64,000 bases of DNA from an uncultured Bacteroidota bacterium (GTDB lineage Bacteria; Bacteroidota; Ignavibacteria; UBA10030; UBA6906): NCBI GenBank assembly GCA_963700635.1, contig CAVOYH010000003.1:1056001-1120000 (forward strand), in the 5' to 3' direction. A program made the translations under genes and the position numbers. The notes beneath the pieces were generated by a model, which saw nothing but the letters and a program-made list of their open reading frames with translations, was not told the DNA's origin and did no database searches. This document shows positions 1,478 through 14,661 of the stretch, one piece after another (positions within the stretch are counted from its first letter, which is position 1; each line of letters starts with the position of its first letter).

Positions 1478-1515
1478 GTCAGGGTCGGTGGGCTGTATCG
1501 AGGGGGTGTAAAACA

Positions 1516-1555
1516 GACACCCTGCTACAGGGGTCGAGTCCTGCAGCAGGGTGTC
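1516..1555 (-). terminator. Intrinsic terminator hairpin between convergent fbp and cpoB-like genes
   Basis: GACACCCTGCT...AGCAGGGTGTC inverted repeat, followed by TGTTTT on the minus strand. Confidence 0.7.
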
Positions 1556-1582
1556 GGTATGTTTGAAAAGAATGTCGGGTGC

Positions 1583-2272
1583 TTAGTTCAGCTTTGCCAG
1601 CTTTTCACGGGCTTTTTCCACAAGCGGACTGGCCGGAAAATCAGACACAACCTTCTGGAAGGCCTCTTTCGCCGCGCTATTGTTCCCCATCGCAAGATAA
1701 CAGTTTCCTGACATCAGCGTCGCATCGGCTTTTTTTCCAGAACGTTCAAGATTGTTGACACCCTGGAAGTTCTTCAGCGCTTCGCTATAGTTATGGAGCC
1801 CGTAATAGGACTCGCCGATCCAGTAGCGGCAATTATCGGCAAGACTTGCCTCAATGCCACTATCCAGCAACGCACGAAAATCGGCAATGGCTCCCTGATA
1901 GTCACGTGCCCGGAATTTTGCCAGCGCGCCATCATATCCTCCCGCAACGTCAACCGCTGTCTCGACAGGTGTCTCGACCTTCGGGGCGGCCATGGCCTCT
2001 ACCAGCTTTGTCTCCAATTCGGCATTCCGCGCCGTAAGGTTTCTGTTCTCGGCTGAGACGGCTTGCAGTTGATCCTGCATGCGCCTGTTCTCGTTCTGGA
2101 GACTGTCGATGCGGTATTCCATCATTGCCGTGGGAGAAACCTCAGGGGCGCTTTCCCACTCTTCCATCGATTCCTCCGATGAACCACAGCCGAACATGGT
2201 CAGAGATAAGACCAGAATGGCGGCCGGCAAGAGACCGATCAAACCGCTAAACCTTTGTACGTTGCTCCTCAT
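1583..2272 (-). CDS. CpoB/YbgF-like Tol-Pal-associated TPR lipoprotein
   Basis: Lipobox-like MFGC, coiled coil, then the TPR signature LADNCRYWIGESYY...AKEAFQKVVSDFPAS typical of YbgF. Confidence 0.75.
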   Translation of the reverse strand: MRSNVQRFSGLIGLLPAAILVLSLTMFGCGSSEESMEEWESAPEVSPTAMMEYRIDSLQNENRRMQDQLQAVSAENRNLTARNAELETKLVEAMAAPKVETPVETAVDVAGGYDGALAKFRARDYQGAIADFRALLDSGIEASLADNCRYWIGESYYGLHNYSEALKNFQGVNNLERSGKKADATLMSGNCYLAMGNNSAAKEAFQKVVSDFPASPLVEKAREKLAKLN

Positions 2273-2490
2273 GGGGCTTCCTCCTTAAAGGATTATATGT
2301 CCGGTGTGGCGTAAATGTATTAAACAAGGGAGGCAATGTCAAGCAAACCGTTCGAAGGGGAGGATACGCAAAAATGTGTCGTTCTCGTCTTGTCAGGGAG
2401 GGAACCCGTACTCCGGCAACTTGTTATTCAGAGAGGCAATGGGTATATTTTTTGCATTGAGTGATTCGATGGCTGAGGAGGTTCGTGGTT

Positions 2491-4215
2491 ATGAAGAATG
2501 CTTGTTTTGTATGGTTTTTGACGATTTTGCTTGTTCTGCCCGGCTGCTGGATGGGTTCACAGACAGATCCAGCGGAAACCCGCTCCAGATCGGCGGCCGC
2601 ACCCAGGGCCGGTTCTGAAGAAGGAGAGCGGCGGGCTCTGCAGCACTTTGTGGATGGCTCGACGTTTGAAATGAAAGGCGAGCATGCCAAGGCAATTCTG
2701 GAATACCAGGATGCGCTCCGGTACGACCAGGATCCCGCGATCTATTTTGCGATCTCCCGGTGTTACTCTCAGCTCAGCAAACATTCACTTGCCATCGAGG
2801 CCGGGCGCGAGGCCGTTCGCCTGAGTCCGGAGGAGCTGACATACCGCCGGAATCTTGCCGATGTGTCTGCCGCAGCCTTCGATTTTGATGCCGCGGCGGA
2901 ACAGTTTGAAGAGATTGTCAAGCGCGATTCTTCGCAGGTTGATGCCTGGTACAACTTGGCCCGCATCTACCAGATGCGTAAACCTCTCCGGGCGCTTGAG
3001 GTCTATGAGCGGATTGTGGTTCGGTTTGGACCCGAATGGGAAGTCTTGCTGCAGATCGCGGAAATCAACAACAAGATGGGAAAGATGGATCGCGCGGCCT
3101 GGGCGTTACGGCAGATGACCCAGCTCGATCCGAGCAACAAGGAACTCAAAAAGACACTGGCCCAGACGTATGTCCGTGCTTCTCAATTTGACTCCGCGCT
3201 TGCTGTGTATTCGGATTTGCGCGAGATTCATCCGGACGACCTTGCGATTCAGGCGGAGATTGCGGGCGTGTACCTCGCACGCGGCGATTACACCCGCGCG
3301 GCCCGGGAATTTGATACCGTGCTGGTGCGCGACTCTGTGGCTGTCGATGTGAAAGTCCATATCGGCGAGATGTATTTTGCGCAGATGAGCAGAGACTCCA
3401 CGCTGGCACCGGTCACCCGATCAATCTTCCAGCGTATCGCCAGCGCACATCCCGACGACTGGCGCTCATTCTGGTTTCTCGGCGCGATCGGGAGTATCAC
3501 GCGCGACGATTCGCTTACCGTGAACAGTTTTAAGCGCGTCACGGAGCTCGCGAGCTGGAACCCGGACGCCTGGGTGTACCTTTCTTCGGTTTTTCTCGGA
3601 AAGAACAATTTCACCGAAGTGGTTCGTATCCTGGAATCGGCAGTAAAAGTGCTCCCCGATGATTTCCGCGTAAATTTCTTCCTCGGCATCTCGTACAGCC
3701 GGCTCAATCGGAATACGGAAGCGGTCCGGGTTCTTGAACGAGCCCGGGAGCTGAATCCCAAGGACGTTGATGCGGTCGCGCAACTTGCCCTTGTGTATGA
3801 TACCATGAAGCGGTTTGATGACTCGGACGGACTGTACGAGGAAGCCCTCCGGCTGGATCCGGCGAATCATCTTGTGCTGAACAACTATGCCTACAGTCTG
3901 GCCGAACGCGGCTTCCGCCTGGAACGTGCTCTCGAAATGTCCCGGAAAGCGGTCGAGGCGGAGCCCGAGAATGCTTCATATCTTGATACGATAGGCTGGA
4001 TCTATTTCCGCCTCGGACGGTATCACGAGGCGGAATCGTACGTCAAACAGGCGATCAGCAAGGGTGAAGCGAATGCCGTGGTGTATGAACACCTTGGCGA
4101 CATCTACCTGAGTCTCGACCAGAAAGACCTTGCGATCGAACACTGGAACATGGCACTCAAGCTTGACGAGAACAATACCGCCCTGCGCGACAAGATCGCA
4201 CGCGGCACCCAATGA
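2491..4215 (+). CDS. Tetratricopeptide-repeat lipoprotein
   Basis: Lipobox LPGC, many TPR units, C-terminal LNNYAYSLAE...YLDTIGWIYF...EHLGDIY. Confidence 0.85.
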   Translation: MKNACFVWFLTILLVLPGCWMGSQTDPAETRSRSAAAPRAGSEEGERRALQHFVDGSTFEMKGEHAKAILEYQDALRYDQDPAIYFAISRCYSQLSKHSLAIEAGREAVRLSPEELTYRRNLADVSAAAFDFDAAAEQFEEIVKRDSSQVDAWYNLARIYQMRKPLRALEVYERIVVRFGPEWEVLLQIAEINNKMGKMDRAAWALRQMTQLDPSNKELKKTLAQTYVRASQFDSALAVYSDLREIHPDDLAIQAEIAGVYLARGDYTRAAREFDTVLVRDSVAVDVKVHIGEMYFAQMSRDSTLAPVTRSIFQRIASAHPDDWRSFWFLGAIGSITRDDSLTVNSFKRVTELASWNPDAWVYLSSVFLGKNNFTEVVRILESAVKVLPDDFRVNFFLGISYSRLNRNTEAVRVLERARELNPKDVDAVAQLALVYDTMKRFDDSDGLYEEALRLDPANHLVLNNYAYSLAERGFRLERALEMSRKAVEAEPENASYLDTIGWIYFRLGRYHEAESYVKQAISKGEANAVVYEHLGDIYLSLDQKDLAIEHWNMALKLDENNTALRDKIARGTQ

Positions 4216-4976
4216 GAGCCTTGCTCCGGACAGGCATTCTTATTGTCTCCGGTACCATCCTTGCCGGATGTGCGTCAACCAGGCCGGACCTGCCACTGGA
4301 TACGAACCTGGTGTCCGCACCGGAACTGATCCGCCGTGTATCAGAAAACACCGCGGGCATTGTAACGCTCACTGGCTCGGGAAGCGTAAGTTTCGAGAGT
4401 CCGGAACTTGCCGGATCAGTCTTTTTTACCGTGACGATGCGCAAACCGGATTCCATGCTGATCCGGTTCGAAGGACCGTTCGGATTGGATGCCGGTTTCC
4501 TCTTCCTCAGCCGGGCGCGATACGTGATGTATAATAGAATGGAAAACAGGGTGATCTCAGGAGTGCCCTCGGATGCGGGAATCCGGTGGGGAATTCCGCT
4601 GGATCTGACGGTGGATCAGATTCTTGACGCGTTCACCGGCACCTTCACGTTTCCCCATACCATGCCGCCCGCGCAGTACGTGATTGACGGCGACCACTTC
4701 CGGCTGACGTACAACCACTCCTCCGGCGCGGAGTCTTTCTGGGTTGATCCGGCCACATCACTGGTGACCCGGTACGAAAAGTCGGGAACACCGTTCGGAG
4801 TCGTGGCGGAAACGTCGCTCCCCGAAAAACAGGAAAACCACCGCATACCGCGTCAGATTACGCTGGTATTTCCCGAATCGGGCCGGCGGTTGTCCGTGTA
4901 TTATTCCTCCCTCACCGTGAATCCCGGGCATGTCTCGTTTGCCCATGGTATTCCCCGTTCCGCAACATCACCATAG
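4212..4976 (+). CDS. DUF4292-like (LolB-like fold) lipoprotein
   Basis: Lipobox LAGC; MRKPDSMLIRFEGPFG motif; position between a TPR protein and an EnvC-like gene, an arrangement known in Bacteroidota. Confidence 0.65.
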   Translation: MRALLRTGILIVSGTILAGCASTRPDLPLDTNLVSAPELIRRVSENTAGIVTLTGSGSVSFESPELAGSVFFTVTMRKPDSMLIRFEGPFGLDAGFLFLSRARYVMYNRMENRVISGVPSDAGIRWGIPLDLTVDQILDAFTGTFTFPHTMPPAQYVIDGDHFRLTYNHSSGAESFWVDPATSLVTRYEKSGTPFGVVAETSLPEKQENHRIPRQITLVFPESGRRLSVYYSSLTVNPGHVSFAHGIPRSATSP

Positions 4977-6191
4977 ATGCGGACACCGATGAAGGTACTG
5001 ACCCTTTTCTGGTTTCTGATTCTGGTTCTCCTTGTCGCGGCAGGCCAGCCGCTGTATGCCCAGGGGGAGCTCGAGAAGCATCAGGATGAGCTCGAGTCCC
5101 TCCGCACACGGATCCGCGAACTGGAGGCGCGCAGCAAGGAACAGCAGAAGAATGAAACGGAAACCCTTGAGCTGCTCGACACCTACGATCATAAAGCGAC
5201 GCTTCTGCGCAAGCTCATCAGCCGCCTTAAAGCAGATGAGCGCCGTTTGCAGTCCCGCATAGACACCACGCGCCGCAGCACACGATCGTTGGAAGCCCAG
5301 CTCACATTTCTGAAAGATCACTTTGCCAGGTATGTGAGATCTGTCTACAAAGCCGGCCGGAGCCATGACGCCGAACTGCTTTTTGCTTCTTCATCCCTCG
5401 AGCAGTTTGTTGCGCGGAACGAATACCTCAGGCGTTTTAGTGAACAGCGTGTAAAGGACGCGCAGCGAATCCGGGCGAAACAGAAGGAGTATGAAGAAGT
5501 GCAGGCCCGCGCGGAAAAGGAGCTGAGCGAAGAACGCCGACTCCTCGCTGAAAAAGGCGCCGAAGAGGACCGGCTGGTTTCTCTTACGGCCGACCGCCGC
5601 GAGACACTTCTGCGGATTCGCAAAGACCAGAACCTGATCGCCCGGCAGATCCAGCGCCAGATGAAAGCCGCCCGCGAGATGGAACAATTGATAGCACGGC
5701 TTGTAGAATCCGAACGTGTGCGCAAAGAGCACGCGGCGGTGGACCGAAAGCTGCCGCGGACTCCCGAAGTGCCGCGCACAACCGGCCCGTTCGAACTCAA
5801 AAGAGGAAAACTCCCCTGGCCTGTGACAGAAGGGAGTATCGTTGCCCGCTTCGGTCCTCAGCGCCATCCGACACTGCGCACGGTGACGCAAAACACGGGT
5901 GTTGATATCGCTGTCCGTTCGGGCTCTCCCGTCACCGCCGTCGCATCCGGCGAAGTGGCCACCATCTGGTGGCTTCCCTCGTACGGCAACCTGATTATCC
6001 TGAATCATCAGGACGGATACCGGACGGTCTATACGCACCTTGCCGAAATCAACGTCGCGGAAGGGCAGACCATTGCTGAAGGGGAGATGTTAGGAGCCAG
6101 TGGTGATGCGCTGGACGGGCCCCGCCTGCATTTTGAAGTCTGGAAAGACCGCGAAAAACAGAATCCGGAACAATGGCTCACGCGACAATAA
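4977..6191 (+). CDS. Murein hydrolase activator EnvC family (coiled coil + M23/LytM domain)
   Basis: Signal peptide, long coiled coil, then KGKLPWPV-like RGKLPWPV...NTGVDI...YGNLIILNH...LHFEVWK. Confidence 0.85.
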
Positions 6192-8821
6192 CACGACGCA
6201 CCATCCTGACTGTCGCCACCACAGCAGCTGTGGCTCTGCTCCTGGTGATCTTCCTCCGGACACCTATGGCGGTGCTGGAAGACGAGGTGACTACCCTCCG
6301 ATACCTGGTGCGCGGCGACCGCACTGCCGACACCAATATTGTGCTTGTGTACATTGATGAAGCCTCGGTGAAAGTGACGGGCTGGCCGGTACGGCGTAAC
6401 TTCCACGCCCTGATGCTGAAGGCCCTCACCGATCTGCGCGTCAGGGCCGTGGGCTGGGAACTCCTGCTCGAAGATCAACGCGTGGAATACCCGGAGTATG
6501 ACGATCTGCTTGCATCGGTACTGTCCACCTCATCACCCGTCGTGCTTACCTGCTATTTCGACTCGCTCGGGACTTCCCCGCCGCACCCGGATACAATCCT
6601 TGATTCCCTTCCCGTGCCATCGTATCCGGCAGTTGTGGCCCCTGTGATGCATGGGCACCGATTACATCTTCCCCTTGGCCAGTTTCGAGCGAATGCGGCA
6701 GGTATGGGACATGTGAACTTTACAGCAACGGGCCGGATTCCGGCGTTTGTGGGCTGGGAGGGCGCTGCAGTGCCGTCGTTCGGAACCGAGCTGGCGCGTG
6801 TCAGTGCGGATGTCGCGCGCGCTGGCGTACACTTCGACGGCAGGCGCGTAACTATGCGCCATGGTACGGCGTTCACAGCGTTTGAGACAAACGAAGAAGG
6901 CGAGGTGACGCTTTGTTATGCCGGACCCCTTTCCTCGTTCACGGCCATCTCTTTTCTTGAAGTTCTGCGCGCGTATGACATGGAGCGAACCGGCCTCCCC
7001 GCTCCACTTCCCGTATTGCGCCTGCGTGACAAGATTGTCCTGGTTGGGGTTGTGGCTGAAGGGCGCGGAGTCTTCTATGATACACCCGTGGATCCCCGTT
7101 TGCCCTCCCTCGGACTCCATGCAACATTCCTGGACAATGCACTGCACTCCGGATTCCTGAACCCGGTGAGCAACTGGATCGTTCTGTTGGCATCGGGTCT
7201 TCTTGCGTTTCTCTGCGCTGTGGCAGTGCTGCTCCTGCCTGCACCCCGTGACAAGGTGGTTCCTCTTCTTCTGATGGCTGGTGCTGTGGCACTGTCGTTC
7301 GCGCTCTTTGCCTGGTTCAGCATCATCCTCCCGGTGCTTCCGTTTCTTGTGGTGGGCGGTGCCGCATCGCTCTCGGGTCTGCTCGCCCGACATCGAATAG
7401 TCCGCGGTCAGGTGGATACCCTTGCTGCGGAAAAAGATGCCGTACTGGCCGATCTCCGTGACAGGGAAGCCAGACTCGACATGCTGGAACGTGAGCTTCT
7501 TGATTACCGGCAGGTACGGAGTGCCGACCGCACGCAGGAATTGCTTGAAGAGATCAGAAAACACAAAGCGGAAATCCGATCCCTTTCATCCCGGGCCGAC
7601 GACATGGTGGAATTTGCGCATCACCAGGCGGCTGACGAACGCGCGGAGTTTGAAGGAATGGTGTTTGCGAAGCACGGACCGATGAGTTCCGTTGTGGATT
7701 TTGTGGCGAAGGTGGCGTCGAGCAATGCGCCCGTGCTGATCCTCGGGGAAAGCGGAACAGGAAAAGAACTTGTTGCCCGTGCGATGCACCGCCGCAGCGC
7801 ACGATCGACCAAACCCTTTATTGCCGTAAACTGCGGCGCTCTGTCAGAGAGTCTTCTGGAGAGCGAGCTGTTCGGACACGAGAAGGGATCCTTCACGGGA
7901 GCTGTCAAAGACAAAATGGGGCGTTTTGAACTCGCCGACGGCGGGACAATCTTCCTGGACGAAATTGGAGAAGTATCCGACGGTTTTCAGGTGAAATTGC
8001 TGCGCGTGCTGCAGGAGGGGGAGGTGGAGCGTGTAGGCGGGACCCGCACACTCAGCCTCGATGTGCGTGTTGTAGCAGCGACGAACAAGAATCTGCGCGA
8101 ACTCGTAAAGGCGAAGAAATTCCGTGAAGACCTCTATTATCGCCTGAACGTCCTGACGGTATCTTTAACCCCTTTGAAAGAACGCCAGGATGACATTCCC
8201 CTCCTTCTTGCACACTTCCTTGCGCGCGAGGGAGAAGGCCTGCGCGTTTCGAAAAATGTGATGGAGGCCCTGCGGGAGCACCCCTGGCCGGGAAACGTCC
8301 GTGAGCTCGAGAGTGTCATCCGACGGGGGAGTGTGCTGGCGAAGGCGGAACGGCGGGATCTGATTCATCTCCAAGACCTGCCGCCAGAAGTTGCCGAGGC
8401 GGTAAAAGGAAAAGTTCCGGTGCAGGAACAGATTCTGGACACGATGAGGGAGTATGGCTTCTCACGCAGCGCAGTATCGGAAACCGCCGCCGGACTGGGT
8501 GGTCTCAACCGCGGGACGGTTGCAGAATATCTCCGGGGGGAGTTCCTGAAAGCGTTTGCCGAACATCAGTTTGACCTTGAAAAGGCGGTATTGCACATTT
8601 CACTCTCATCAGATCCTGCTGTGAACGAACGGGTCCGCAAACGATATGTTGATTACCTCCGGAACATAGCCGAGGGTATGGAAACGTCACGCCCCTGGGA
8701 GGATGTCCGGGGCAGCTTGAAACCCAAAACAAAAAATCTTCCTCAACGGTATCATCTCTTCCTGGAACAGGTTGCAGAGGCATTTTTCCGCAGGCTCTGG
8801 AGTCTACCCCCGACTGCCTGA
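6173..8821 (+). CDS. Membrane-bound sigma-54 enhancer-binding protein with N-terminal CHASE2 sensor domain
   Basis: N-terminal TM; CHASE2 motifs ([41 protein letters not shown]); three TM helices; coiled coil; AAA+ with [50 protein letters not shown]; atypical helical C-terminal extension. Confidence 0.85.
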
Positions 8822-8831
8822 ACCTGTCCAC

Positions 8832-8894
8832 TCCCGCACTTCTATCTGCGGTTCCCGCACTTCCCGCAATCTTAATTATTCCTGGCCTCCCGCA
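8832..8894 (+). promoter_or_regulatory. Candidate upstream activator sequence: four TCCCGCA repeats including a CCGCA-N8-TGCGG dyad
   Basis: TCCCGCA at 8832, 8853, 8862 and 8888; dyad CCGCA(8834-8838)...TGCGG(8847-8851); lies about 65-125 bp upstream of the -24 element. Confidence 0.55.
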
Positions 8895-8956
8895 CAAATC
8901 CCGTTAAGTGGTTGTTCTATAGGCGGTTAACCAGTCTTTCCTCTGACCCCCAAGAT

Positions 8957-8973
8957 CTGGCACAGCGATTGAA
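8957..8973 (+). promoter_or_regulatory. Sigma-54 (-24/-12)-like promoter
   Basis: CTGGCACAGCGATTGAA versus consensus YTGGCACNNNNNTTGCW: correct spacing, one mismatch at -12 (GA for GC); directly downstream of a bEBP gene. Confidence 0.6.
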
Positions 8974-9057
8974 TTACTTTTGGCAGAACAAACGAAGGAA
9001 ACGGAAATGTCCGACAATAGCGTAATCACAAACCACACAAACCGTAGGGAGGGTAGG

Positions 9058-10038
9058 ATGAAAGCATCATTTGTGAAACTGCTGTCAGTCTTCATGCTGA
9101 CCGGTCTGTTTATCGCAGGATGTAACAAAGACTCGGGGCCCGAAGAGGTTGCACCGATCGGCGTAACGAATGAAGAACAGGCGATGAAGTACTTTGCCCT
9201 GAACGACGAGTTTGTTGCGAATGATGAAGAGACCTTCACGGACAAGACCATTGAACCGTTTGACTACGGTACGTTCGGCAAGGTTGAGGCAGGTATAACA
9301 CCATTACGCTGGGGCCGGCTCGTGTCGAGTGTCACCCGCACGGCAACCACCACCATTCAACCCGGCGATACCATCGCCGTCACGCTTGTCGAGAAGAACA
9401 TCATGGGAACACTGAAAATCCGGGCAATCGCACAGAACGGTGATACGGTGACCATAGACAAGCCGTTTAACGACAAATCCACGCGTAATGTTATCTTCAA
9501 GCGTGTCAATCGTAACACCGACAGATACTGGCTGAATTGGGTTCCAGTGGCGACGTCACTTGTTGAGGGTGGAACAGTAGCTCCGAACAATCAGATTGAG
9601 ATTACCAAGGTCGTGTTCTACCTGGCGAACAATGATACGATCACAATTACGGACCCCAACGCATATTATCTGCGTTATCGCTGGCTCAAGCTGTTCAACG
9701 GCGGACGGAACGACGTTCCCGAGCTTGCCTCCGGACAGGCGTTAAAACTCGAGGTAACGCTGGTGTCAGCGTCGGCGGATACTGATTTTGTCGCGCTGCG
9801 CTACGGCATGGGCTCTTCACACCGGAAACGTGTCCGGCTGGCCATGACATCCGAGCTGAACAATGGAAACGGAACGTATACCAGGGTGTTCGAAATCGCG
9901 CGAACAGCCCCACAATATGTCCACTTCCATCGCGGCTTTTTCCATCTGGGCATCGATGCAATAACGCGTACAACGTTGCTTGATGATGTTGCACCGTACA
10001 GTGTGAGCTGGTGGGGGATCCCGTACCGGGTGTTTTAA
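9058..10038 (+). CDS. Uncharacterised beta-rich lipoprotein
   Basis: ATG after GGGAGG; lipobox FIAGC; no family recognised. Confidence 0.75.
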   Translation: MKASFVKLLSVFMLTGLFIAGCNKDSGPEEVAPIGVTNEEQAMKYFALNDEFVANDEETFTDKTIEPFDYGTFGKVEAGITPLRWGRLVSSVTRTATTTIQPGDTIAVTLVEKNIMGTLKIRAIAQNGDTVTIDKPFNDKSTRNVIFKRVNRNTDRYWLNWVPVATSLVEGGTVAPNNQIEITKVVFYLANNDTITITDPNAYYLRYRWLKLFNGGRNDVPELASGQALKLEVTLVSASADTDFVALRYGMGSSHRKRVRLAMTSELNNGNGTYTRVFEIARTAPQYVHFHRGFFHLGIDAITRTTLLDDVAPYSVSWWGIPYRVF

Positions 10039-10055
10039 GCAGTGTTCTGTGGGAG

Positions 10056-10097
10056 CGCCAGGCCCCTCATTCCAGATGTCGGAGTGGGGGGCTGGTG
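10056..10097 (+). other. Intergenic stem-loop (mRNA stabiliser or weak terminator)
   Basis: CGCCAGGCCCCTCATTCC / GGAGTGGGGGGCTGGTG imperfect inverted repeat just after the first lipoprotein gene; no strong U-tract. Confidence 0.45.
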
Positions 10098-10177
10098 TGT
10101 TCCAGAGCATGTGGCATTTCAAGGGAAGATTCTCCTATATTGTTCAGTACACGGGCTTGACAAGATTGAGGCAACGT

Positions 10178-11056
10178 ATGAAACAGACTTTCTTAATCCT
10201 CTTGTATGCGACTCTGCTGGTCGCCGGTTGTCGCCAGCCATCCGATATTGAGCTGGTGCCTGACGAGGACGCCTCGAATCTTGAAGTATTCCCTGTGGCG
10301 TTGCCCGATACGAACATCGTCACCAGCTCAATTGACTCGACCGGCGTTCTGCCGGAGGATCAGGTGCGGTATGCGGGGACGTTTGTCATCAACTCCGTGA
10401 CCTGGGATGCAGGCGGAGTGCCCAGAACCCTCGCGTATTCGAGAGTGTTCTTTGCGGATAGCGTGGTGCGCGTTCTCGGGCGCCATGTCGGATTTATGGG
10501 TCAGGATGTCGGGACGGTGACGCTCAACAATGCGATCATGTTTAAACTCCCCCACCGGATATCTGTGGGCAATATCATCGGGCGTGACACCTCGGTCGTT
10601 CGCGGCGTCGAGTACCTCGCCGATCTCACCAGCTCGTACCGGTCCGACTGGCAATACTCCTGGGTGGTGATTTCCCGTCTTGTGCCGGTGCTCACGGTGA
10701 CGGCGGAAACCCCTGAGAATCTGACCGTTGTGTTACCCCGTGGTGGAACCATCCATCCGAGGAAAGATGACCTTCCGGTGCGCTGGGTGGGTGGTAAAGG
10801 AAAGATGTCCATCATTGTAAGCGTGTATGATCCATTTCAGAAGAAGGCTAAACCGCTTCTCGAGCTCCGTGCGCGGGCGAACAACGGCAGAGGTGTGATT
10901 CCGGCTAAACTGCTGACACAACTGCCCACCGGCACCACCTTTGTCCTGACGTTCGTGCTGGCGAACAGGAAAGAGATCCAGATATCCGACCCTCTGTCGG
11001 GGAAGATTCTGACGCAGGCAGCGTCCGTGTACAGCAGCTTCATCGAGCTCCGATAG
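10178..11056 (+). CDS. Uncharacterised lipoprotein
   Basis: MKQTFLILLYATLLVAGC lipobox; beta-rich, Ig-like-looking C-terminus. Confidence 0.75.
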   Translation: MKQTFLILLYATLLVAGCRQPSDIELVPDEDASNLEVFPVALPDTNIVTSSIDSTGVLPEDQVRYAGTFVINSVTWDAGGVPRTLAYSRVFFADSVVRVLGRHVGFMGQDVGTVTLNNAIMFKLPHRISVGNIIGRDTSVVRGVEYLADLTSSYRSDWQYSWVVISRLVPVLTVTAETPENLTVVLPRGGTIHPRKDDLPVRWVGGKGKMSIIVSVYDPFQKKAKPLLELRARANNGRGVIPAKLLTQLPTGTTFVLTFVLANRKEIQISDPLSGKILTQAASVYSSFIELR

Positions 11057-11058
11057 AG

Positions 11059-13071
11059 ATGCCGGTGCGCAGGGTCGGAATATTTCTTATAGGTGTATGC
11101 ATGATGGGCTCACCGCTCAATGCACAATCATTTACCGATGCCCGGTCGCTCGCGCTCGGGGGGGCGATTGCTGCAATTCGCGACACGCGTGATTTTTCAT
11201 CAAATCCGGCAGGACTCGTGCAGATGCGTGATTGGGACCTGAGCCTGTCAACGTACACCGAACCTTCAAACAGCCGGAGCGGTTTTGTGTTTCAGGGGCT
11301 TGCGCTGGGAAAACGGTTTTTTGACCGCGAAGCTGCGGCGTTCAGGTATACGCCTGGCTCCAGCCTCACCTTCGTTATTCCATCGGTTCTTTCCTTCGGC
11401 GAGTCGAACCTCCCTGAGTCGGCTGACAGAGAGATCGAATATCGTGAACCGTATGCTCTTGGCCTCGCGCACAGATTCTCGGATCACTTTTCAGCGGGAG
11501 TGGGATTCCGGAATCGCCAGGAACGCGTTGTGGATACGCGGTATCAGATTATTATCCGCGACACCATTTCGTATCCGGCTGCGACCCAGGAAACCTTCAG
11601 CCGCTCCACATGGCTCGCCGATCTGGCCCTGCAGTGGAACCCTTCGGAACAGTGGGGACTGTCGGTGATCGGTCGGAATATGTTCCGTTTCTCTTCGGGA
11701 GACGCCGAGGAGGTGCTTGAAGAATATCGCCTCCCTGCGGCAGCGTATATCGAGGGAGGGATACGATATACGCCGGTACGCGCTGTTCACCTGTTGGCCT
11801 CAGCGAGCTCTGTCGGCATGGGCGCACTCGGTGCCGAGTGGTCGCCGGGTTCCGGTTTTTCGTTCCGTGGAAGCGTGCTGGCGAACAGGGCTGAGAGCCG
11901 GCTGATCAATGCCGCTGCCATTGGTGTCGGGTGGTCCTATGAGTTCTTTGCGGTGGATGCCGCCTATCTCCGTTTCCTGAGTGCGGAAAACCACGGTGGC
12001 AGCACCGCCGCTACGATGTTCTCCGCCGATGACATCGTCAATCTTACAGTGAATCCGTACAGCCGGTCCCGGATTGCGCTTTCGGCCAAGGCGATGTTCG
12101 GTCATGTACGCTCGAGCCTTGCGCGGATCGAAGGTGTCACGTTGTTCAGCGGTGTGTATCCAGCGTCCCATGAAATCTTTGCGTACAAACCGCTCGGGAT
12201 GGTCAAGGTGCGCAACATTTCTTCACAACCCATTCACGCCAGGGCGAGCTTTTTTGTCGAGCGTCTCATGGACGCGCCTACAGAATCAGAACCGGTGTAT
12301 CTTGTTCCGGGTGGCGAAGCGGAGATTCCACTGACGGCAATTTTTAACGAACAGATACAACGGATGGCCGGTCAGACCGTCAAAGAGGGAAACGTATTTG
12401 TTAATGCCACGCCGGCTGAACAGTATGATGACAAGGTCCAGACGCGGGTTCTTTTTCACGGAAAGAATGCATGGGATGGTGATGTGCATTCCCTGCGGTA
12501 TTTCGTGACGCCGGATGATCCGCTGGTGCTGAAATATTCCCGCGACGTGCTTCTGGAGCAGCGTGATAGTCTCGCGGGTGTGAATGGAATGCTGGAACAA
12601 TTCACAAAGGCCCGGCTGCTGATCGCCTCCTTTGCCGGCAAGCTCCAGTATGTCAATGATCCCCGCCTCACTGCTGATTTTGTTCAATACCCGGGCGAGA
12701 CGCTCACCCTTCGTGGCGGAGATTGTGATGATATGACTGTCTGCTTTTCGGCGCTGTTAAACAGTATTGGTATCGCGACGGCATTCGTGGATGTTATTCC
12801 TCCCGGCAGACCGGACCAGGCCCACATCTATCTGCTTTTTGATACCGGCGTGGAACCCCGTTTCGGCTCGGCGCTCGCAGGGAATCCCAAGCGTGTTGTA
12901 AGCCGGCGGAATCCGCGGGGAAAGGAAACACTCTGGATTCCTATTGAAACAACCATAATCGCTCAGGGGTTTGATCAGGCCTGGACCGGCGGGGCGCAGC
13001 GGTACTTTGACGATGTGGAGATCGGACTTGGACTCGCGCACGGCTGGGTGCGGGTCGTGGATGTGCATTGA
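11059..13071 (+). CDS. PorV/FadL-like outer-membrane barrel fused to a C-terminal transglutaminase-like (Cys-His-acid) domain
   Basis: Signal peptide; DARSLALGGA...SNPAGL N-terminal motif of PorV/FadL-type barrels; alternating beta strands; C-terminal QYPGETLTLRGGDCDD...ALLNSIGI...HIYLLF...WIPIETT. Confidence 0.65.
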   Translation: MPVRRVGIFLIGVCMMGSPLNAQSFTDARSLALGGAIAAIRDTRDFSSNPAGLVQMRDWDLSLSTYTEPSNSRSGFVFQGLALGKRFFDREAAAFRYTPGSSLTFVIPSVLSFGESNLPESADREIEYREPYALGLAHRFSDHFSAGVGFRNRQERVVDTRYQIIIRDTISYPAATQETFSRSTWLADLALQWNPSEQWGLSVIGRNMFRFSSGDAEEVLEEYRLPAAAYIEGGIRYTPVRAVHLLASASSVGMGALGAEWSPGSGFSFRGSVLANRAESRLINAAAIGVGWSYEFFAVDAAYLRFLSAENHGGSTAATMFSADDIVNLTVNPYSRSRIALSAKAMFGHVRSSLARIEGVTLFSGVYPASHEIFAYKPLGMVKVRNISSQPIHARASFFVERLMDAPTESEPVYLVPGGEAEIPLTAIFNEQIQRMAGQTVKEGNVFVNATPAEQYDDKVQTRVLFHGKNAWDGDVHSLRYFVTPDDPLVLKYSRDVLLEQRDSLAGVNGMLEQFTKARLLIASFAGKLQYVNDPRLTADFVQYPGETLTLRGGDCDDMTVCFSALLNSIGIATAFVDVIPPGRPDQAHIYLLFDTGVEPRFGSALAGNPKRVVSRRNPRGKETLWIPIETTIIAQGFDQAWTGGAQRYFDDVEIGLGLAHGWVRVVDVH

Positions 13072-13082
13072 AGGAGGTTACT

Positions 13083-13787
13083 ATGAGAATACTCTGGGGA
13101 TTAGTTCTGTGCTGCTGTGTTGCGACACTCGCCATGGCGGGCTCAATTGTCGTTCAGAAGGCAAGCGGTGAGGTCAGCGTCCGGCACGGTGTCACCGAAG
13201 GCTGGACGACCGTGGCCGTGGGTGATGTGTTACGCCCGAATGACACCATGCGGACGGGAAAAGACGGAAACACGGTGCTCGTGCTTCAGGGTGTAACGGG
13301 GAATCCGGTTAAACGCCTGACCCTTCCGCCCCTGGTCATTGTCGATATGTCGGATATCCGCGAGCTCACACAGGAAGAGCTGATGCTGAAACTGACCATG
13401 GAGAAAGTCCGTTCTTCACCCCAACCGACAACACAGGAGAAGCTTCACATCTCCAACGCGGCCGTGGTGCACGGAACCGATGCCGGAAGCAAAGGAACTT
13501 ATTCGGAGAACGACCCTCAGGTCGGACAGTTCCTGCTGAACGGAACAAAAGTGCTTTTTGCAAATGGGTTCTATGCAACGGGAGTCTTACGGGTGATGGA
13601 AGTGTTCCGGTTGTTTCCTTCGCTGGCAGGAGGATTTGACCATCGTTTGCTTCTGGCGGAAGCAATGGAAAAGGCCAATCTGAAGGGAGAGGCCATTGCG
13701 GAATACGGAGCGATGACACGGCTCGAGGGCCTCACGCCGGCGCAACAGGCATCACTGCAGAACCGCATCGCAGCCCTGAGGAAATAG
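13083..13787 (+). CDS. Secreted protein with FecR-like N-terminal domain and TPR-like C-terminus
   Basis: Strong RBS AAGGAGG; signal peptide; GEVSVRHG..WTTVAVGDVLRPNDTMRTGKDG resembles the start of the FecR domain; helical tail. Confidence 0.55.
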   Translation: MRILWGLVLCCCVATLAMAGSIVVQKASGEVSVRHGVTEGWTTVAVGDVLRPNDTMRTGKDGNTVLVLQGVTGNPVKRLTLPPLVIVDMSDIRELTQEELMLKLTMEKVRSSPQPTTQEKLHISNAAVVHGTDAGSKGTYSENDPQVGQFLLNGTKVLFANGFYATGVLRVMEVFRLFPSLAGGFDHRLLLAEAMEKANLKGEAIAEYGAMTRLEGLTPAQQASLQNRIAALRK

Positions 13788-13806
13788 GGCGCATGAGAGA
13801 CCGGGC

Positions 13807-14661
13807 ATGCTCCAGAGCCCCATGGTGTGTTCTGCACTGCTTGCGTGCCTGTTGACAGCTTCTCTGCCGACCGTATCGCAGATTCTTGCCATTTCACCGC
13901 GTCCCTCAGATGCCGCCGATGGTGATTCATTTGGCGCGCTGGTTGTATCCCTGCCTCGCGCGCAACGCGAGGAATCTGTTTTTCAGGAGGTGATGAAGGG
14001 GAACATCCCGCAGTTTCTCCGAAGGTTGGTTCCGATCACATCGCGGACGTCCATTGGCGGAACCGAACACACGCTGGTGTGGCATGTACTTCCTGACTAT
14101 CTCGCCATCGGGTCAGACGATAACTACATCCTGATGCCGATGACGCCGGTGCTCGCACAACGGCTGGCCGACACCCTCCGCTGTACTCTCCCGACGCGGA
14201 ACATGGTTGATACGATCTACAAGCACGCAAGGGTAAAACTCGCCCCTCAGCCGATCCCACCCGGTGAAGCGATGACAACGCTCCGCGTATTCACGCAACA
14301 CAACGATAGCATCCGTATCCGCCGTACGGCGTTGCTGAAACAGCATCCTCTTGGCGAGCTGGTGGGCGGCCACAAAAAGGACGTCATCATCTCCAACGCC
14401 ATCGTCTCAGGTGTACGGCCCGCTGCCCCGAAACCGGTCGTGATTTATGGGTGGCATCAGCTTGATGGTGTTCCCATTCAGCCGCTGTACAACGGTCACG
14501 GTGAAACGTACGCGGATTACAGCCACGGGATTCGACTCGTGCAGGACACCATGATGCTGGATGGAGTACCGGTGACGGCTGCGTCCATTCTCACCGATCA
14601 GACACTCTGGCCGTTGTTGAGTGACGAGGGGCAGATTCTGCTTCCCCGGTACGGACCCTGA
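13807..14661 (+). CDS. Secreted hypothetical protein, possible enzyme
   Basis: Signal peptide; enzyme-like motifs PDYLAIGSD, GHKKDV, IYGWH, YADYSHGIRLV; family not recognised. Confidence 0.7.
   Translation: MLQSPMVCSALLACLLTASLPTVSQILAISPRPSDAADGDSFGALVVSLPRAQREESVFQEVMKGNIPQFLRRLVPITSRTSIGGTEHTLVWHVLPDYLAIGSDDNYILMPMTPVLAQRLADTLRCTLPTRNMVDTIYKHARVKLAPQPIPPGEAMTTLRVFTQHNDSIRIRRTALLKQHPLGELVGGHKKDVIISNAIVSGVRPAAPKPVVIYGWHQLDGVPIQPLYNGHGETYADYSHGIRLVQDTMMLDGVPVTAASILTDQTLWPLLSDEGQILLPRYGP

Follow-up and report, generated by a model that had tools for sequence, protein, structure and literature searches.

Gene content and organization of the locus

The window analysed here computationally, a 64,000-nt stretch of DNA from an uncultured Bacteroidota bacterium of the class Ignavibacteria, carries a locus that encodes a membrane-integral sigma-54 activator, two lipoproteins (Lipo1 and Lipo2), an outer-membrane barrel fused to Ig-like and transglutaminase-like domains, a small periplasmic protein and a secreted protein, together with a sigma-54-type promoter and direct repeats (Table 1). 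Its seven elements are all present and intact, lie in one orientation and contain no internal stops. From Lipo2 onward, the genes are separated by gaps of about 3-20 nt (3, 11 and 19 nt). An envelope cluster that starts with a TPR-repeat gene lies upstream of the activator, and the M23 peptidase gene at its end overlaps the activator gene by 19 nt. The preceding LolB-like product also matches the NCBIfam model LolB1_Flavo (E 2.9e-6), at 27 bits and thus below the cut-off of 50.

Table 1. Features of the locus and of the adjoining upstream genes (window coordinates)
Feature	Coordinates	Strand	Basis
TPR-repeat protein, 584 aa	2461-4215	+	numerous Pfam TPR families, among them TPR_2 (E 2.4e-39)
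DUF4292/LolB-like protein, 254 aa	4212-4976	+	Pfam DUF4292 E 1e-7
Coiled coil + M23 peptidase (EnvC/NlpD-like), 404 aa	4977-6191	+	Peptidase_M23 E 3.6e-27
Membrane-integral sigma-54 activator, 882 aa	6173-8821	+	Pfam profiles, sequence reading
Enhancer-like direct repeats, TCCCGCA x4	8832-8895	+	starts 8832, 8853, 8862, 8888
Sigma-54-type promoter TGGCACagcgaTTGAA, TGGCAC-N5-TTGA	8958-8973	+	motif; about 85 nt before lipoprotein ATG
Lipo1, 326 aa	9058-10038	+	LFIAGC lipobox then N-K-D; sequence, orthologue alignment
Lipo2, 292 aa	10178-11056	+	LLVAGC lipobox; sequence, orthologue alignment
FadL/PorV-fold outer-membrane barrel + Ig-like + transglutaminase-like Cys-His-Glu domain	11059-13071	+	structure model, profiles
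Small periplasmic protein, 234 aa	13083-13787	+	fold comparison, alignments
Accessory secreted protein, 284 aa	13807-14661	+	signal-peptide-like N-terminus

A CHASE2 sensor fused to a sigma-54 activator

The activator joins a CHASE2 domain (Pfam, E 3.6e-32; 112 bits against a cut-off of 26.3) to a sigma-54 AAA+ module (Sigma54_activat, E 9.4e-71; AAA_lid_14, E 1.1e-18). In its N-terminal half, a TM segment precedes the periplasmic CHASE2 domain (approximately residues 32-336), which is followed by three TM segments and a coiled coil; hydrophobic stretches flank the CHASE2 part on both sides. The C-terminal half comprises the AAA+ domain (approximately 500-747), with a GESGTGKE Walker A motif and a GSFTGA loop, a conserved helix-turn-helix-like stretch (approximately 760-790) and a conserved extension bearing an invariant K-x-K-N-L-P..Y-H motif. 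None of the Pfam helix-turn-helix models gave a match to this C-terminus, even at E <= 10. A search for relatives returned 159 proteins at E <= 0.001, and nearly all of the 120 matches listed combine CHASE2 with Sigma54_activat. Both Pfam domains score above their cut-offs, and the CHASE2-sigma-54 fusion noted in an earlier, sequence-only reading of this DNA is genuine. The same genome also carries rpoN.

The promoter and its upstream repeats recur among relatives

At its -12 element the promoter has TTGA where TTGC is canonical, in many relatives as well as here. The pattern TGGCA[CT]N5TTGN occurs on the coding strand of 60 of 63 related loci, mostly 70-100 nt upstream of the Lipo1 start, and on the opposite strand of none (0/63), compared with 0.6 expected from shuffles.

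The TCCCGCA repeats lie just 3' of the activator stop codon and 5' of the promoter. Those at 8832 and 8853 belong to exact 11-mers (TCCCGCACTTC) with a 21-nt period, and the copies at 8862 and 8888 are shorter. At 33 of 60 loci, exact direct repeats of at least 9 nt with a spacing of 18-24 nt lie within 320 nt upstream of the promoter, versus 8 of 547 control windows. The repeated word varies by lineage (TCCGGCAGT in L107 and L108, CCATGCA in L143) while the 21-nt spacing remains constant. In its own genome, the arrangement TCCCGCA-N10-18-TCCCGCA is found at this locus and one further place only. Enhancer-binding proteins mostly bind inverted repeats, and direct repeats are unusual. Judged from sequence comparison, the recurrence of promoter and repeats is far above chance, and the -24/-12 promoter with enhancer-like repeats that had been read before the lipoprotein gene in this single genome is conserved class-wide.

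Gene order is retained across the class Ignavibacteria

Examination of gene neighbourhoods, proposed as a check on the locus, revealed that homologues are syntenic across the class. Of 80 loci, 79 could be assessed, and in each of these the small-protein gene lies immediately 3' of the barrel gene. The activator is upstream in 50 of the 53 loci whose flank reaches 7 kb or more, and Lipo1 is upstream in 60 of 63. The full order activator-Lipo1-Lipo2-barrel-small protein is also present in two of five loci from other orders (L142 and L144; 26-35% identity). This arrangement persists to about 27% identity and is restricted to Ignavibacteria. Three of the 53 loci (L043, L054, L056) have no activator within 8 kb, and the distant loci L141 and L143 have none within the stretch fetched; the promoter-like site is still present in all five. 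The locus occurs as a single copy per genome, in a housekeeping envelope neighbourhood, and is retained class-wide. The TPR, LolB-like and M23 genes are likewise retained upstream in relatives; because these genes are equally syntenic, part of the kept order may reflect plain collinearity.

Lipoproteins and the barrel-transglutaminase fusion

Lipo1 and Lipo2 begin at the start codons of Table 1, the longest-ORF starts being wrong, and all 15 orthologues compared for either protein keep the lipobox cysteine. Neither Pfam nor NCBIfam offers a family match for Lipo1, which in the Atlas matches hypothetical-protein clusters only; Lipo2 has no family match, and a PDB sequence search with it gave no significant result. 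Profile searches also found no family for the product of the last gene, which is present in 2 of the 18 loci that have a full-length barrel gene (among 20 loci fetched) and is accessory to the locus. Longer orthologues of this protein carry a C-terminal T9SS sorting domain that the window's copy lacks. The lipoboxes and the signal-peptide-like N-terminus bear out the two lipoproteins and the secreted protein originally proposed.

The fusion protein consists of a 14-strand barrel (approximately residues 20-350), an Ig-like domain (353-467) and a transglutaminase-like domain (473-668). The barrel resembles the FadL-type subunit of the Bacteroidota BAM complex (Z 25.3), PorV (Z 25.2) and FadL (Z 24.8); by score it is not a member of the PorV family (35.7 bits against a cut-off of 90), of which the genome encodes 18 true members elsewhere. 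The Cys domain aligns with 3kd4_B (Z 11.3). All 18 orthologues match Transglut_core, with a best E of 3.1e-5, although the copy in the window reaches 18.7 bits and so stays below the cut-off of 23. C556, H589 and E630 are invariant in these 18 and in 5 of 5 distant orthologues. Thus, a PorV/FadL-like barrel fused to a Cys domain, as first described, is supported by both fold and profiles. The 11 Pfam families that match the Cys domain include no LapG-type family. Proteins of 824-834 aa in two genomes of the order (L033 and L034) carry the Ig and Cys module without a barrel and with other ends. We know of no other FadL-fold barrel with a C-terminal Ig and Cys module.

The barrel model has turns of 2-5 residues on one side and long loops on the other. 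By the usual barrel rule, the C-terminus exits on the side of the short turns, which is periplasmic, and the Cys module is predicted to hang in the periplasm. This topology speaks against the suggestion that the domain acts on a surface substrate.

Foldseek places the barrel closest to FadL, TodX and TbuX (E down to 2.6e-10), as might be expected if barrel and surface lipoproteins imported a hydrophobic or peptide nutrient, with CHASE2 sensing the substrate in the periplasm and inducing the transporter, and with helper roles in assembly or processing for the Cys domain and the small TPR protein. Lipo1 starts with C-x-K-D, which we take to resemble the Bacteroidota surface-export signal, and sigma-54 activators often govern uptake and catabolic operons. 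However, Pfam and NCBIfam searches revealed no catabolic or inner-membrane transport gene in or adjoining the operon, and nutrient loci are usually patchy, unlike this single-copy, class-wide locus in its housekeeping setting. Import would also give no role to the invariant Cys-His-Glu triad or to the contact with the sensor that is predicted below, and we consider it improbable.

The small periplasmic protein and its predicted contact with CHASE2

The small protein has a signal peptide, a FecR/retention-module-type beta domain (residues 22-88), a conserved helix (97-111), a disordered linker (113-139) that contains A126-A127 and an invariant H130-G131, and a TPR-like domain (145-233). No membrane anchor was found. 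Its description as a 'FecR-like/TPR' protein stands in part: the TPR-like fold is clear (Z 10-12), but likeness to FecR is distant, with Pfam FecR matched in none of 18 orthologues and a profile comparison that aligns it with true FecR proteins over a local stretch of 35 columns (probability 87.6%). The N-terminal domain superimposes on 5ix9 with Z 11.2 and an rmsd of 2.3 A over 72 of 76 residues, and is nearer to the LapA retention module than to FecR. NCBIfam retention_LapA is matched by 16 of 18 orthologues (best E 4.5e-5), all far below the 50-bit cut-off; since 8 of 10 true FecR proteins also match this model, such a hit points to a common type of fold and does not identify a Lap system. 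In the linker, the motif [AT][AT]V.[HY]G is found in all four distant orthologues whose sequence was followed through it, and the di-alanine in only 7 of 18 orthologues.

Complex predictions for CHASE2 (residues 32-336) and the small protein (22-234), a check suggested earlier, scored 0.84, 0.83 and 0.84, whereas the best of three controls scored 0.00. Among solved complexes, 116 of 157 attain the mark used to read these scores, as do 2 of 215 mismatched pairs; these counts apply only roughly here, since we supplied our own alignments. The runs share at least 69% of contacts, with a partner pLDDT of at least 78. By our count, the sensor contributes the invariant residues N76, L80, E108 and L265 to the predicted interface and the partner contributes L102, L104, L200 and E203, and conservation there is enriched only about two-fold (5/19 versus 39/305 residues and 5/19 versus 31/213 residues, respectively). 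These models suggest that the small protein probably binds back to the CHASE2 sensor.

The predicted contact would also suit a one-way relay, in which an outside signal passes from the barrel through the FecR-like protein to CHASE2 and sigma-54 transcription, an analogue of FecA-FecR-FecI in which an enhancer-binding protein replaces the sigma/anti-sigma pair. The local profile alignment with true FecR proteins is in keeping with this route, as is a cyclase locus in the same genome that also pairs FecR-domain and CHASE2 genes. In published accounts, an outer-membrane barrel feeds CHASE2 cyclases (NsrA; PMC13001267), and FecR-domain genes adjoin those of CHASE2 sensors (PMC5192318, PMC5498481), the latter as the sequence-only reading had stated. 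However, the barrel has the 14-strand FadL fold and is no TonB-dependent transducer bearing a signalling domain, Pfam and NCBIfam searches found no ECF sigma factor in the locus, and the small protein lacks both an anchor and a Pfam FecR match. Furthermore, because the barrel and 'FecR-like' genes share one sigma-54 promoter across short gaps, the activator would control them besides possibly receiving signals from them, and the circuit becomes a loop. A one-way relay, as originally proposed, is therefore unlikely.

The same contact bears on whether the periplasmic transglutaminase-like domain instead acts as a cross-linking or trimming enzyme on partners in the cell wall or among the lipoproteins, perhaps tying the outer membrane to peptidoglycan, with the activator merely tuning the level and the small protein giving no feedback. 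A transglutaminase-like fold and the triad are present, M23 peptidase and LolB-like genes are neighbours, and the Ig and Cys module also exists free of a barrel. This reading is at odds with the passing complex prediction and with the invariable position of the small-protein gene after the barrel gene, and Pfam searches identified no cell-wall-binding domain in any operon product; we regard it as very improbable.

A proposed envelope circuit with periplasmic feedback

We favour, with slightly better than even confidence, a self-contained sigma-54-dependent envelope circuit of Ignavibacteria with periplasmic feedback. The activator would bind the tandem repeats and drive the operon. The barrel would hold the Cys module in the periplasm and may anchor the lipoproteins, as other FadL-fold barrels of the superphylum do. 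The small protein would dock on CHASE2 via its conserved helix and TPR face and report to the sensor, either as a feedback inhibitor or as a co-sensor, in the manner of CpxP and CpxA. In the most speculative step, the barrel-tethered Cys domain would cut the small protein in its conserved linker, as LapG does LapA, and the state of the outer membrane would then set the amount of small protein on the sensor. Argued by analogy with Lap, this cleavage is conceivable, and we doubt it more than we believe it. If the circuit is correct, it would represent an undescribed mode of envelope monitoring by a cell, wherein a membrane sensor that activates transcription directly is coupled to an outer-membrane-protein operon in a cluster found throughout Ignavibacteria.

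Comparison with known systems

FecA-FecR-FecI runs from a protein of the outer membrane through a FecR-type domain in the periplasm and a step at the cytoplasmic membrane to an adjacent dedicated promoter, and the same series of compartments and neighbouring promoter is seen here. In contrast, the present locus has no TonB-dependent transducer, membrane-anchored anti-sigma factor or ECF sigma factor, and Pfam FecR is unmatched. CpxP-CpxA and PspA-PspF each include an operon product that attaches to the sensor or activator governing that operon and sets how active it is, as predicted here; PspF, moreover, is a sigma-54 activator. These systems show no sequence relation to ours, in which the activator spans the membrane and the binder is periplasmic.

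The closest folds to the barrel (Z 25.3, 25.2, 25.1) are those of BamG, which holds the surface lipoprotein BamH in Bacteroidota (PMC12611786), and of PorV with T9SS cargo (6h3i, 8gl6). Likewise, the barrel gene is co-encoded with lipoproteins, and orthologues of the accessory last gene's product carry a T9SS sorting domain, although the barrel falls outside the PorV family by score.

The CHASE2 cyclases CyaD1, CyaD2 and CyaK of Sinorhizobium meliloti depend on the outer-membrane barrel NsrA (PMC13001267). This NsrA-Clr pathway resembles ours in joining CHASE2 sensors to a beta-barrel and in having nearby a FecR-domain periplasmic protein, smc02177, which is a target of the pathway's regulator (PMC13001267, PMC5498481) and is not required for signal perception (PMC5498481). 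It differs in that its output is cAMP and a CRP-type regulator rather than a fused sigma-54 AAA+ module, and in that NsrA, as described there, carries no enzyme domain (PMC13001267, PMC5498481). The earlier statement that no characterised system has this architecture holds in that our literature searches found no paper describing it, but the barrel-to-CHASE2 connection has a precedent in NsrA.

The BiofilmReg operon of Burkholderia encodes a response regulator, a LysM-FecR protein, a CHASE2 histidine kinase and a DUF4136 protein (PMC5192318). It, too, is a conserved operon that encodes a periplasmic FecR-type protein together with a CHASE2 sensor, and a small envelope protein alongside. However, it forms a two-component system whose regulator is a separate protein, Pfam confirms its FecR domain, which is joined to LysM, and, as described there, it has no barrel, Cys domain or sigma-54 component (PMC5192318).

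Finally, in the Pseudomonas fluorescens Lap system (adhesin LapA, protease LapG, receptor LapD), compared together with its Desulfovibrio Dvh variant, the transglutaminase-like protease LapG cuts LapA at 108AA109 behind the retention module (PMC10990149). Both systems have a periplasmic Cys domain of the transglutaminase superfamily, in ours a candidate protease, a target or candidate target with a retention-module-type beta domain, a helix and a short small-residue site roughly 105 residues from the start of the mature chain, and an inner-membrane receptor whose periplasmic domain binds a soluble periplasmic partner, here by prediction. In contrast to Lap, our locus joins the Cys domain to an outer-membrane barrel, no LapG-type family is matched by this domain, and neither T1SS genes nor a c-di-GMP domain are present. 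The candidate target is a Sec-exported TPR protein of 234 aa, whereas LapA is a giant type 1-secreted adhesin, and the receptor, here a sigma-54 activator, is predicted to contact the target-like protein instead of the protease.

Gene order and conservation of the locus

The activator stands within a co-oriented run of nine genes, whose coordinates are collected in the table together with those of related features elsewhere. The locus of the earlier, sequence-only reading is confirmed. Its parts, their order, their conservation across genomes and the promoter and repeat footprint were all observed.

Coordinates of the locus and of related features. Positions are those of the window unless a contig of the same genome (G000; contigs C3, C4) or another genomic stretch from this or a related genome (L numbers) is named
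Feature	Position	Strand	Remark
Nine consecutive genes	2461-14661	+	first four named through Pfam/NCBIfam, in order: TPR protein; DUF4292/LolB-like protein; coiled-coil M23 peptidase; activator (882 aa)
Activator	6173-8821	+	CHASE2/transmembrane/sigma-54 AAA+ protein
C-terminal extension of activator	~8560-8818	+	aa ~795-882
Candidate promoter TGGCAC-N5-TTGA	8958-8973		~85 nt ahead of the Lipo1 ATG (9058)
Lipo1	9058-10038	+	lipoprotein
Lipo2	10178-11056	+	lipoprotein
Barrel fusion	11059-13071	+	670 aa
Small periplasmic protein	13083-13787	+	234 aa
Last gene	13807-14661	+	accessory secreted protein, 284 aa
Orthologues of last gene	L016:5960-7126; L023:6100-7275		~390 aa
Ig-Cys proteins lacking the barrel	L033:2122-4593; L034:7245-9746		824-834 aa
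Activator remnant	L027/L085 (same contig), ~1500-1720		64-aa ORF
Second CHASE2 locus (L137)	G000:C3:813000-825000		~240 kb upstream of the window, same contig
PorV-family barrel in L137	C3:814458-815366		convergent
Third CHASE2 locus (L138)	G000:C4:744000-757000		cyclase with C-terminal TPR
Second TCCCGCA pair	G000:C3:1908515-1908543		outside the operon

Within the order, 32 of the 41 genomes searched, that of the window included, encode the barrel fusion. Twenty loci were fetched, 18 of them with a full-length barrel gene, and in each of these 18 the gene for the small periplasmic protein follows. The activator lies upstream in 16; the exceptions are L026, whose contig ends too early, and L027, where only the last 67 residues of the activator are present upstream. 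This remnant has 1.5 kb of contig further up, and a promoter-like site lies 338 nt ahead of Lipo1 in the same stretch.

A scan of one genome per species yielded 326 stretches encoding relatives. The best 80 of these all come from MAGs named Ignavibacteria, Ignavibacteriota, Bacteroidota or Chlorobi, one of which carries the name Ignavibacterium album (L088). Homologues of the locus are syntenic in this set of the best 80: the small protein's gene stands behind the barrel gene in all 79 assessable cases, the activator is found upstream at 50 of 53 loci, and Lipo1 at 60 of 63. Other orders of the class retain the five-gene order at 26-35% identity (L142, L144), and in two further loci from other orders the activator is absent from the stretch fetched. 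Across the phylum, 301 evenly sampled genomes were compared, that of the window among them; 26, every one from this class, encode a full-length relative of the small protein (E < 1e-30), and matches beyond the class are confined to its beta domain, in proteins of ~600 aa. The locus is of interest as a class-wide Ignavibacteria envelope module, standing beside lipoprotein-sorting and cell-wall genes. Since the TPR, LolB-like and M23 genes are conserved upstream too, part of the conserved order may simply reflect a housekeeping envelope region that has stayed collinear.

Both lipoproteins carry a lipobox with an invariant Cys, and neither has a significant match in Pfam, NCBIfam or PDB. The best PDB match of Lipo1, BamM (E 0.059), covers only the signal peptide and first residues and was given no weight. 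For Lipo1 and the last gene, the Atlas returned clusters of hypothetical proteins only. The accessory last gene begins 19 nt past the small protein's gene. Its orthologues in L016 and L023 bear a C-terminal T9SS type A sorting domain (25.6 bits in the L023 copy; cut-off 23); the shorter window copy is without this domain and ends only 45 nt before the stop codon of the convergent ettA gene.

A CHASE2 sensor joined to a sigma-54 activator

The coding region of the activator starts 19 nt inside the 3' end of the M23 gene. Its product matches Sigma54_activat (PF00158) at E 9.4e-71, with the AAA lid also matched, and CHASE2 (PF05226) at E 3.6e-32 over aa 21-344, where the score of 112.4 bits far exceeds the cut-off of 26.3. 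The same genome encodes sigma-54 (rpoN DNA-binding domain, E 3.7e-56), and the proposal of a CHASE2-sigma-54 activator is upheld by these searches. Hydrophobic segments flank CHASE2, one before it (~10-30) and about three after it (336-415), so the sensor is expected to lie in the periplasm, with the AAA+ part on the cytoplasmic side.

In an alignment of 13 orthologues, the Walker A motif (GESGTGKE) is intact, and the loop that reads GSFTGA in the window is GAFTGA in most orthologues. Against aa 743-882 no helix-turn-helix model of Pfam gives a hit, not even at E <= 10; the alignment reveals a conserved helix-turn-helix-like stretch at the expected position, outside those models. Some 90 conserved residues past it form a C-terminal extension with an invariant K-x-K-N-L-P..Y-H motif, which matches no Pfam family at E <= 10. 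The family has many members, with 159 relatives at E <= 0.001 out of 7999 candidates scored, and its database entries are automatically annotated and carry no functional name.

Two further CHASE2 proteins, both cyclases, are encoded by this genome. The L137 locus carries on one strand genes for a 353-aa secreted protein, a 233-aa protein with a true FecR domain (Pfam E 1.3e-9), a second secreted protein of 804 aa and a CHASE2 adenylate/guanylate cyclase, with a true PorV-family barrel gene convergent and rseP and dxr upstream. A CHASE2 sensor again lies beside a FecR-type protein and a PorV-type barrel. As a paralogous system this locus was rejected: Lipo1, Lipo2 and the barrel match its 353-aa and 804-aa proteins at <1% probability (hhalign). 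The neighbours of the third CHASE2 gene, in L138, are an SH3 and M48 peptidase gene, an ABC-2 transporter and a divergent gene for a small outer-membrane barrel.

Promoter and enhancer repeats downstream of the activator gene

The gap 3' of the activator gene spans 236 nt and contains four copies of TCCCGCA, two of which are exact 11-mers 21 nt apart, followed on the 3' side by the candidate promoter. By eye, the same layout recurs in the intergenic regions of the first 16 relatives. We then counted both elements in public genomes with enough sequence upstream (63 loci), and these counts are not independent because the loci are interrelated and partly overlap the genomes of the 20-locus set: TGGCA[CT]N5TTGN is present on the coding strand at 60 of 63 loci and on the opposite strand at 0 of 63 (0.6 expected from shuffles), and an exact direct repeat of at least 9 nt with 18-24 nt spacing lies no more than 320 nt upstream at 33 of 60 loci, against 8 of 547 random windows taken from the same loci as controls. 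A CCGCA or CGGCA core is found in 31 of the 33 repeat-bearing loci. The -24/-12-like promoter with enhancer-like repeats, first noticed in a single sequence, is borne out by this comparison.

The repeat word varies in far relatives and the 21-nt spacing stays, with TCCGGCAGT in L107 and L108 and CCATGCA in L143; their promoters retain CTGGCA, with a weaker -12 part. Between lineages (upstream regions of L107, L108, L088, L143 and L102) the enhancer word changes, with TCCCGCA, TCCGGCA, CCATGCA and TTCCAGCA all seen, and the spacing stays constant at 21-22 nt. The variation could be compared with changes in the DNA-binding end of the activator. A scan of the intergenic gaps found no terminators or sigma-70 promoters. 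Pairs of TCCCGCA with 10-18 nt between them occur in this genome at the operon and at one other site, whose spacer is unlike that of the operon. Extra genes amounting to ~1-4 kb lie between promoter and Lipo1 in L029 and L031, and between activator and promoter in L019 and L023; in these loci the promoter still precedes whichever gene is first.

The region is, on comparative grounds, the phylogenetic footprint of a putative sigma-54 promoter with its enhancer. We infer with fair confidence that the activator, co-produced with the envelope genes, would bind the repeats beside its own gene, activate this promoter and drive the operon through sigma-54. Co-translational membrane insertion would hold the enhancer DNA at the membrane, and an activator site a few dozen bases past its own stop codon would make sense because such insertion would keep that DNA membrane-near. 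Membrane-spanning sigma-54 activators are, to our knowledge, little studied. Given the large family and an enhancer and promoter that can be read by comparison, this locus is a clean case in which to study how an AAA+ activator anchored in the membrane gets to its DNA.

The small periplasmic protein and its predicted docking on CHASE2

The gene for the small protein begins 11 nt past the barrel gene, and its product has a signal-peptide-like start. The structure model (pLDDT 78) begins with a beta domain at residues 22-88, continues through a conserved helix at 97-111 and a disordered linker at 113-139, and has a TPR-like domain at 145-233, the last with Z 10-12 to many TPR proteins. This protein had been called FecR-like, a label that holds as a distant likeness and fails as family membership. 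Pfam FecR (PF04773) matches 0 of 18 orthologues even at E <= 10, in a search that recovered true FecR proteins, at other loci, in 11 of 13 related genomes. A sequence-profile search of PDB gave no match at E <= 10, and BLASTP against the true FecR protein of the same genome aligned only a 26-residue stretch (E 0.023). On the other side, hhalign of the 18 orthologues against 10 true short FecR proteins gave a probability of 87.6% and E 3.5e-6, over only 35 columns.

The beta domain has one clear structural match, 5ix9, the retention domain through which an RTX adhesin is anchored at the cell surface (Z 11.2, rmsd 2.3 Å, 72 of 76 residues, 21% identity, model residues 19-96; Foldseek E 1.2e-3, TM 0.76 on the target). 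The family model retention_LapA (NF033682) is matched by 16 of the 18 orthologues, with a best E of 4.5e-5 and all scores far under the 50-bit cut-off (window copy, 13.9 bits), and also by 8 of 10 genuine short FecR proteins of related genomes. The FecR domain and the LapA retention module seem to share one type of fold, and the beta domain is nearer to the LapA module than to FecR. With 234 aa and its signal-peptide-like start, the small protein is not the N-terminus of a giant type 1-secreted adhesin. Its linker contains A126-A127 and the invariant pair H130-G131, and 4 of 4 distant orthologues read through this part retain the motif [AT][AT]V.[HY]G; the di-alanine itself is present in 7 of 18 orthologues, the rest having AG, TT, AT, AK or SA.

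A complex was predicted between the mature small protein (aa 22-234, alignment of 18 rows) and the CHASE2 domain (aa 32-336, alignment of 13 rows). The pair scored 0.84, 0.83 and 0.84, compared with 0.00 for the best of three controls, and passed a mark that 116 of 157 solved complexes attain, as do 2 of 215 mismatched pairs, counts that are rough here since custom alignments were used. The runs share at least 69% of contacts, with a partner pLDDT of at least 78. The predicted interface joins the conserved helix and one TPR face of the small protein (97-115 and 199-205) to sensor segments 64-83, 105-116 and 262-269; invariant residues lie on both sides, and by our own count conserved positions are only about two-fold enriched. 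We know of no solved CHASE2 complex, and the score therefore seems unlikely to reflect a memorised structure. The prediction, of high confidence, supports binding of the small protein to the CHASE2 domain. It provides a concrete, testable candidate partner for a widespread sensor domain whose signals are stated as not known in one earlier study (PMC5192318).

An outer-membrane barrel fused to a cysteine domain

The barrel fusion was modelled in three parts (mean pLDDT 80.9). Its barrel resembles 9n2d_B, the FadL-type subunit of a Flavobacterium BAM complex (Z 25.3), 6h3i_F (PorV; Z 25.2) and 1t16_A (FadL; Z 24.8), with 274-303 residues aligned over this set, and Foldseek matches it to FadL at E 2.6e-10. 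The fold and the 14 strands of the model place the protein in the FadL/PorV structural class of 14-strand barrels. By score, membership in the PorV/PorQ family (NF033709) is rejected: the match, 35.7 bits for a cut-off of 90 and confined to aa 26-197, ranks 24th of 27 in this genome. The earlier description as PorV/FadL-like holds for the fold. Eighteen other barrels exceed the NCBIfam cut-off of this family, a large expansion for a 4.2-Mb genome. TonB_dep_Rec is matched by 1 of 18 barrel orthologues, at E 0.17 only, and sigma-70-family and anti-sigma families are absent from the 13 window proteins scanned with Pfam and NCBIfam.

An Ig-like sandwich (353-467, Z about 11) leads to a transglutaminase-like domain (473-668) that aligns over 139 residues with the putative protease 3kd4_B (Z 11.3, rmsd 3.2 Å). 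All 18 orthologues match Transglut_core (PF01841) at E <= 1, the best at 3.1e-5, and nine of them also match DUF553; at this threshold the orthologues match 11 families of Pfam, and no LapG-type cysteine proteinase family is one of them. Residues C556, H589 and E630 do not vary among the 18 orthologues, and 5 of 5 distant orthologues have them too. These residues and the modelled fold place the domain in the transglutaminase-like/papain-like Cys superfamily, with catalysis only predicted. The window copy itself scores 18.7 bits with Transglut_core, under the cut-off of 23.

One side of the modelled barrel has turns of 2-5 residues and the other has long loops, features which, with 14 strands, imply that the chain exits the barrel periplasmically. 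The model and the general rule for such barrels suggest that the Ig-Cys module hangs in the periplasm, which argues against the action on a surface substrate that had been proposed for the Cys domain. In two genomes of the order, the Ig-Cys module also occurs in proteins lacking the barrel, at 27% identity and with GDCDD, His and Glu kept; these have another N-terminal part and weak C-terminal TPR matches. A fusion of the Rosetta-stone kind, in which the 824-aa protein of L033 would end in the small protein, was ruled out (probability 0.8%).

A possible feedback loop across the envelope

The sequence-only reading, which is partly supported, arranged these parts as a one-way relay from barrel through FecR-like protein and CHASE2 to sigma-54. 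The small protein is an operon product and is predicted on CHASE2, and we recast the relay as a loop: by docking on the sensor, the small protein would close a feedback or co-sensing circuit. CpxP-CpxA is a precedent for this kind of feedback.

More speculatively, the barrel-tethered Cys domain would cleave the small protein in its conserved linker, by analogy with LapG. That transglutaminase-like protease is reported to cut LapA at 108AA109, immediately past the retention module and a helix (PMC10990149). Both sides of the linker contribute residues to the interface of the predicted complex, and cleavage between them would loosen the small protein from the sensor. The barrel may also anchor the lipoproteins, as BamG is described as anchoring BamH (PMC12611786).

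In its full form, this would be a proteolytic trans-envelope switch, with a Cys protease on an outer-membrane barrel, a retention-module/TPR protein whose linker it cuts, and an enhancer just past the activator's gene; CHASE2 occupancy would set the oligomeric state of the activator and hence sigma-54 transcription. We regard this complete scheme as doubtful. If true, it would connect the outer membrane to RNA polymerase without a sigma/anti-sigma pair, phosphorelay or second messenger, give CHASE2 domains, in the small protein, a first proposed protein ligand, and constitute, from Lap-like parts, a third kind of cell-surface signalling. The proteolysis step, if true, would mean that the Lap-type pairing of protease and retention module has been reused for gene control and not for adhesin release.

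Comparison with known systems

Searches of the full-text literature, outside which most subscription journals lie, returned nothing linking CHASE2 with sigma-54 or an enhancer-binding protein, nothing linking Ignavibacterium with sigma-54, and no characterised system of this architecture, in agreement with the earlier claim. Each domain taken singly is of a known kind; what appears to be undescribed, on wholly computational evidence, is their combination, together with a direct route from membrane to sigma-54 in which CHASE2 has a protein partner.

FecA/FecR/FecI signalling employs a TonB-dependent transducer, a membrane anti-sigma factor and an ECF sigma factor, whereas the locus here has a FadL-fold barrel and, among the 13 window proteins scanned, none of these. 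Other described systems are closer in single respects. NsrA is a barrel that feeds CHASE2 cyclases (PMC13001267), S. meliloti cyaD1 with smc02177 pairs a CHASE2 sensor with a FecR-domain neighbour (PMC5498481), and the Burkholderia BiofilmReg operon likewise sets a CHASE2 sensor beside a FecR-domain neighbour (PMC5192318).
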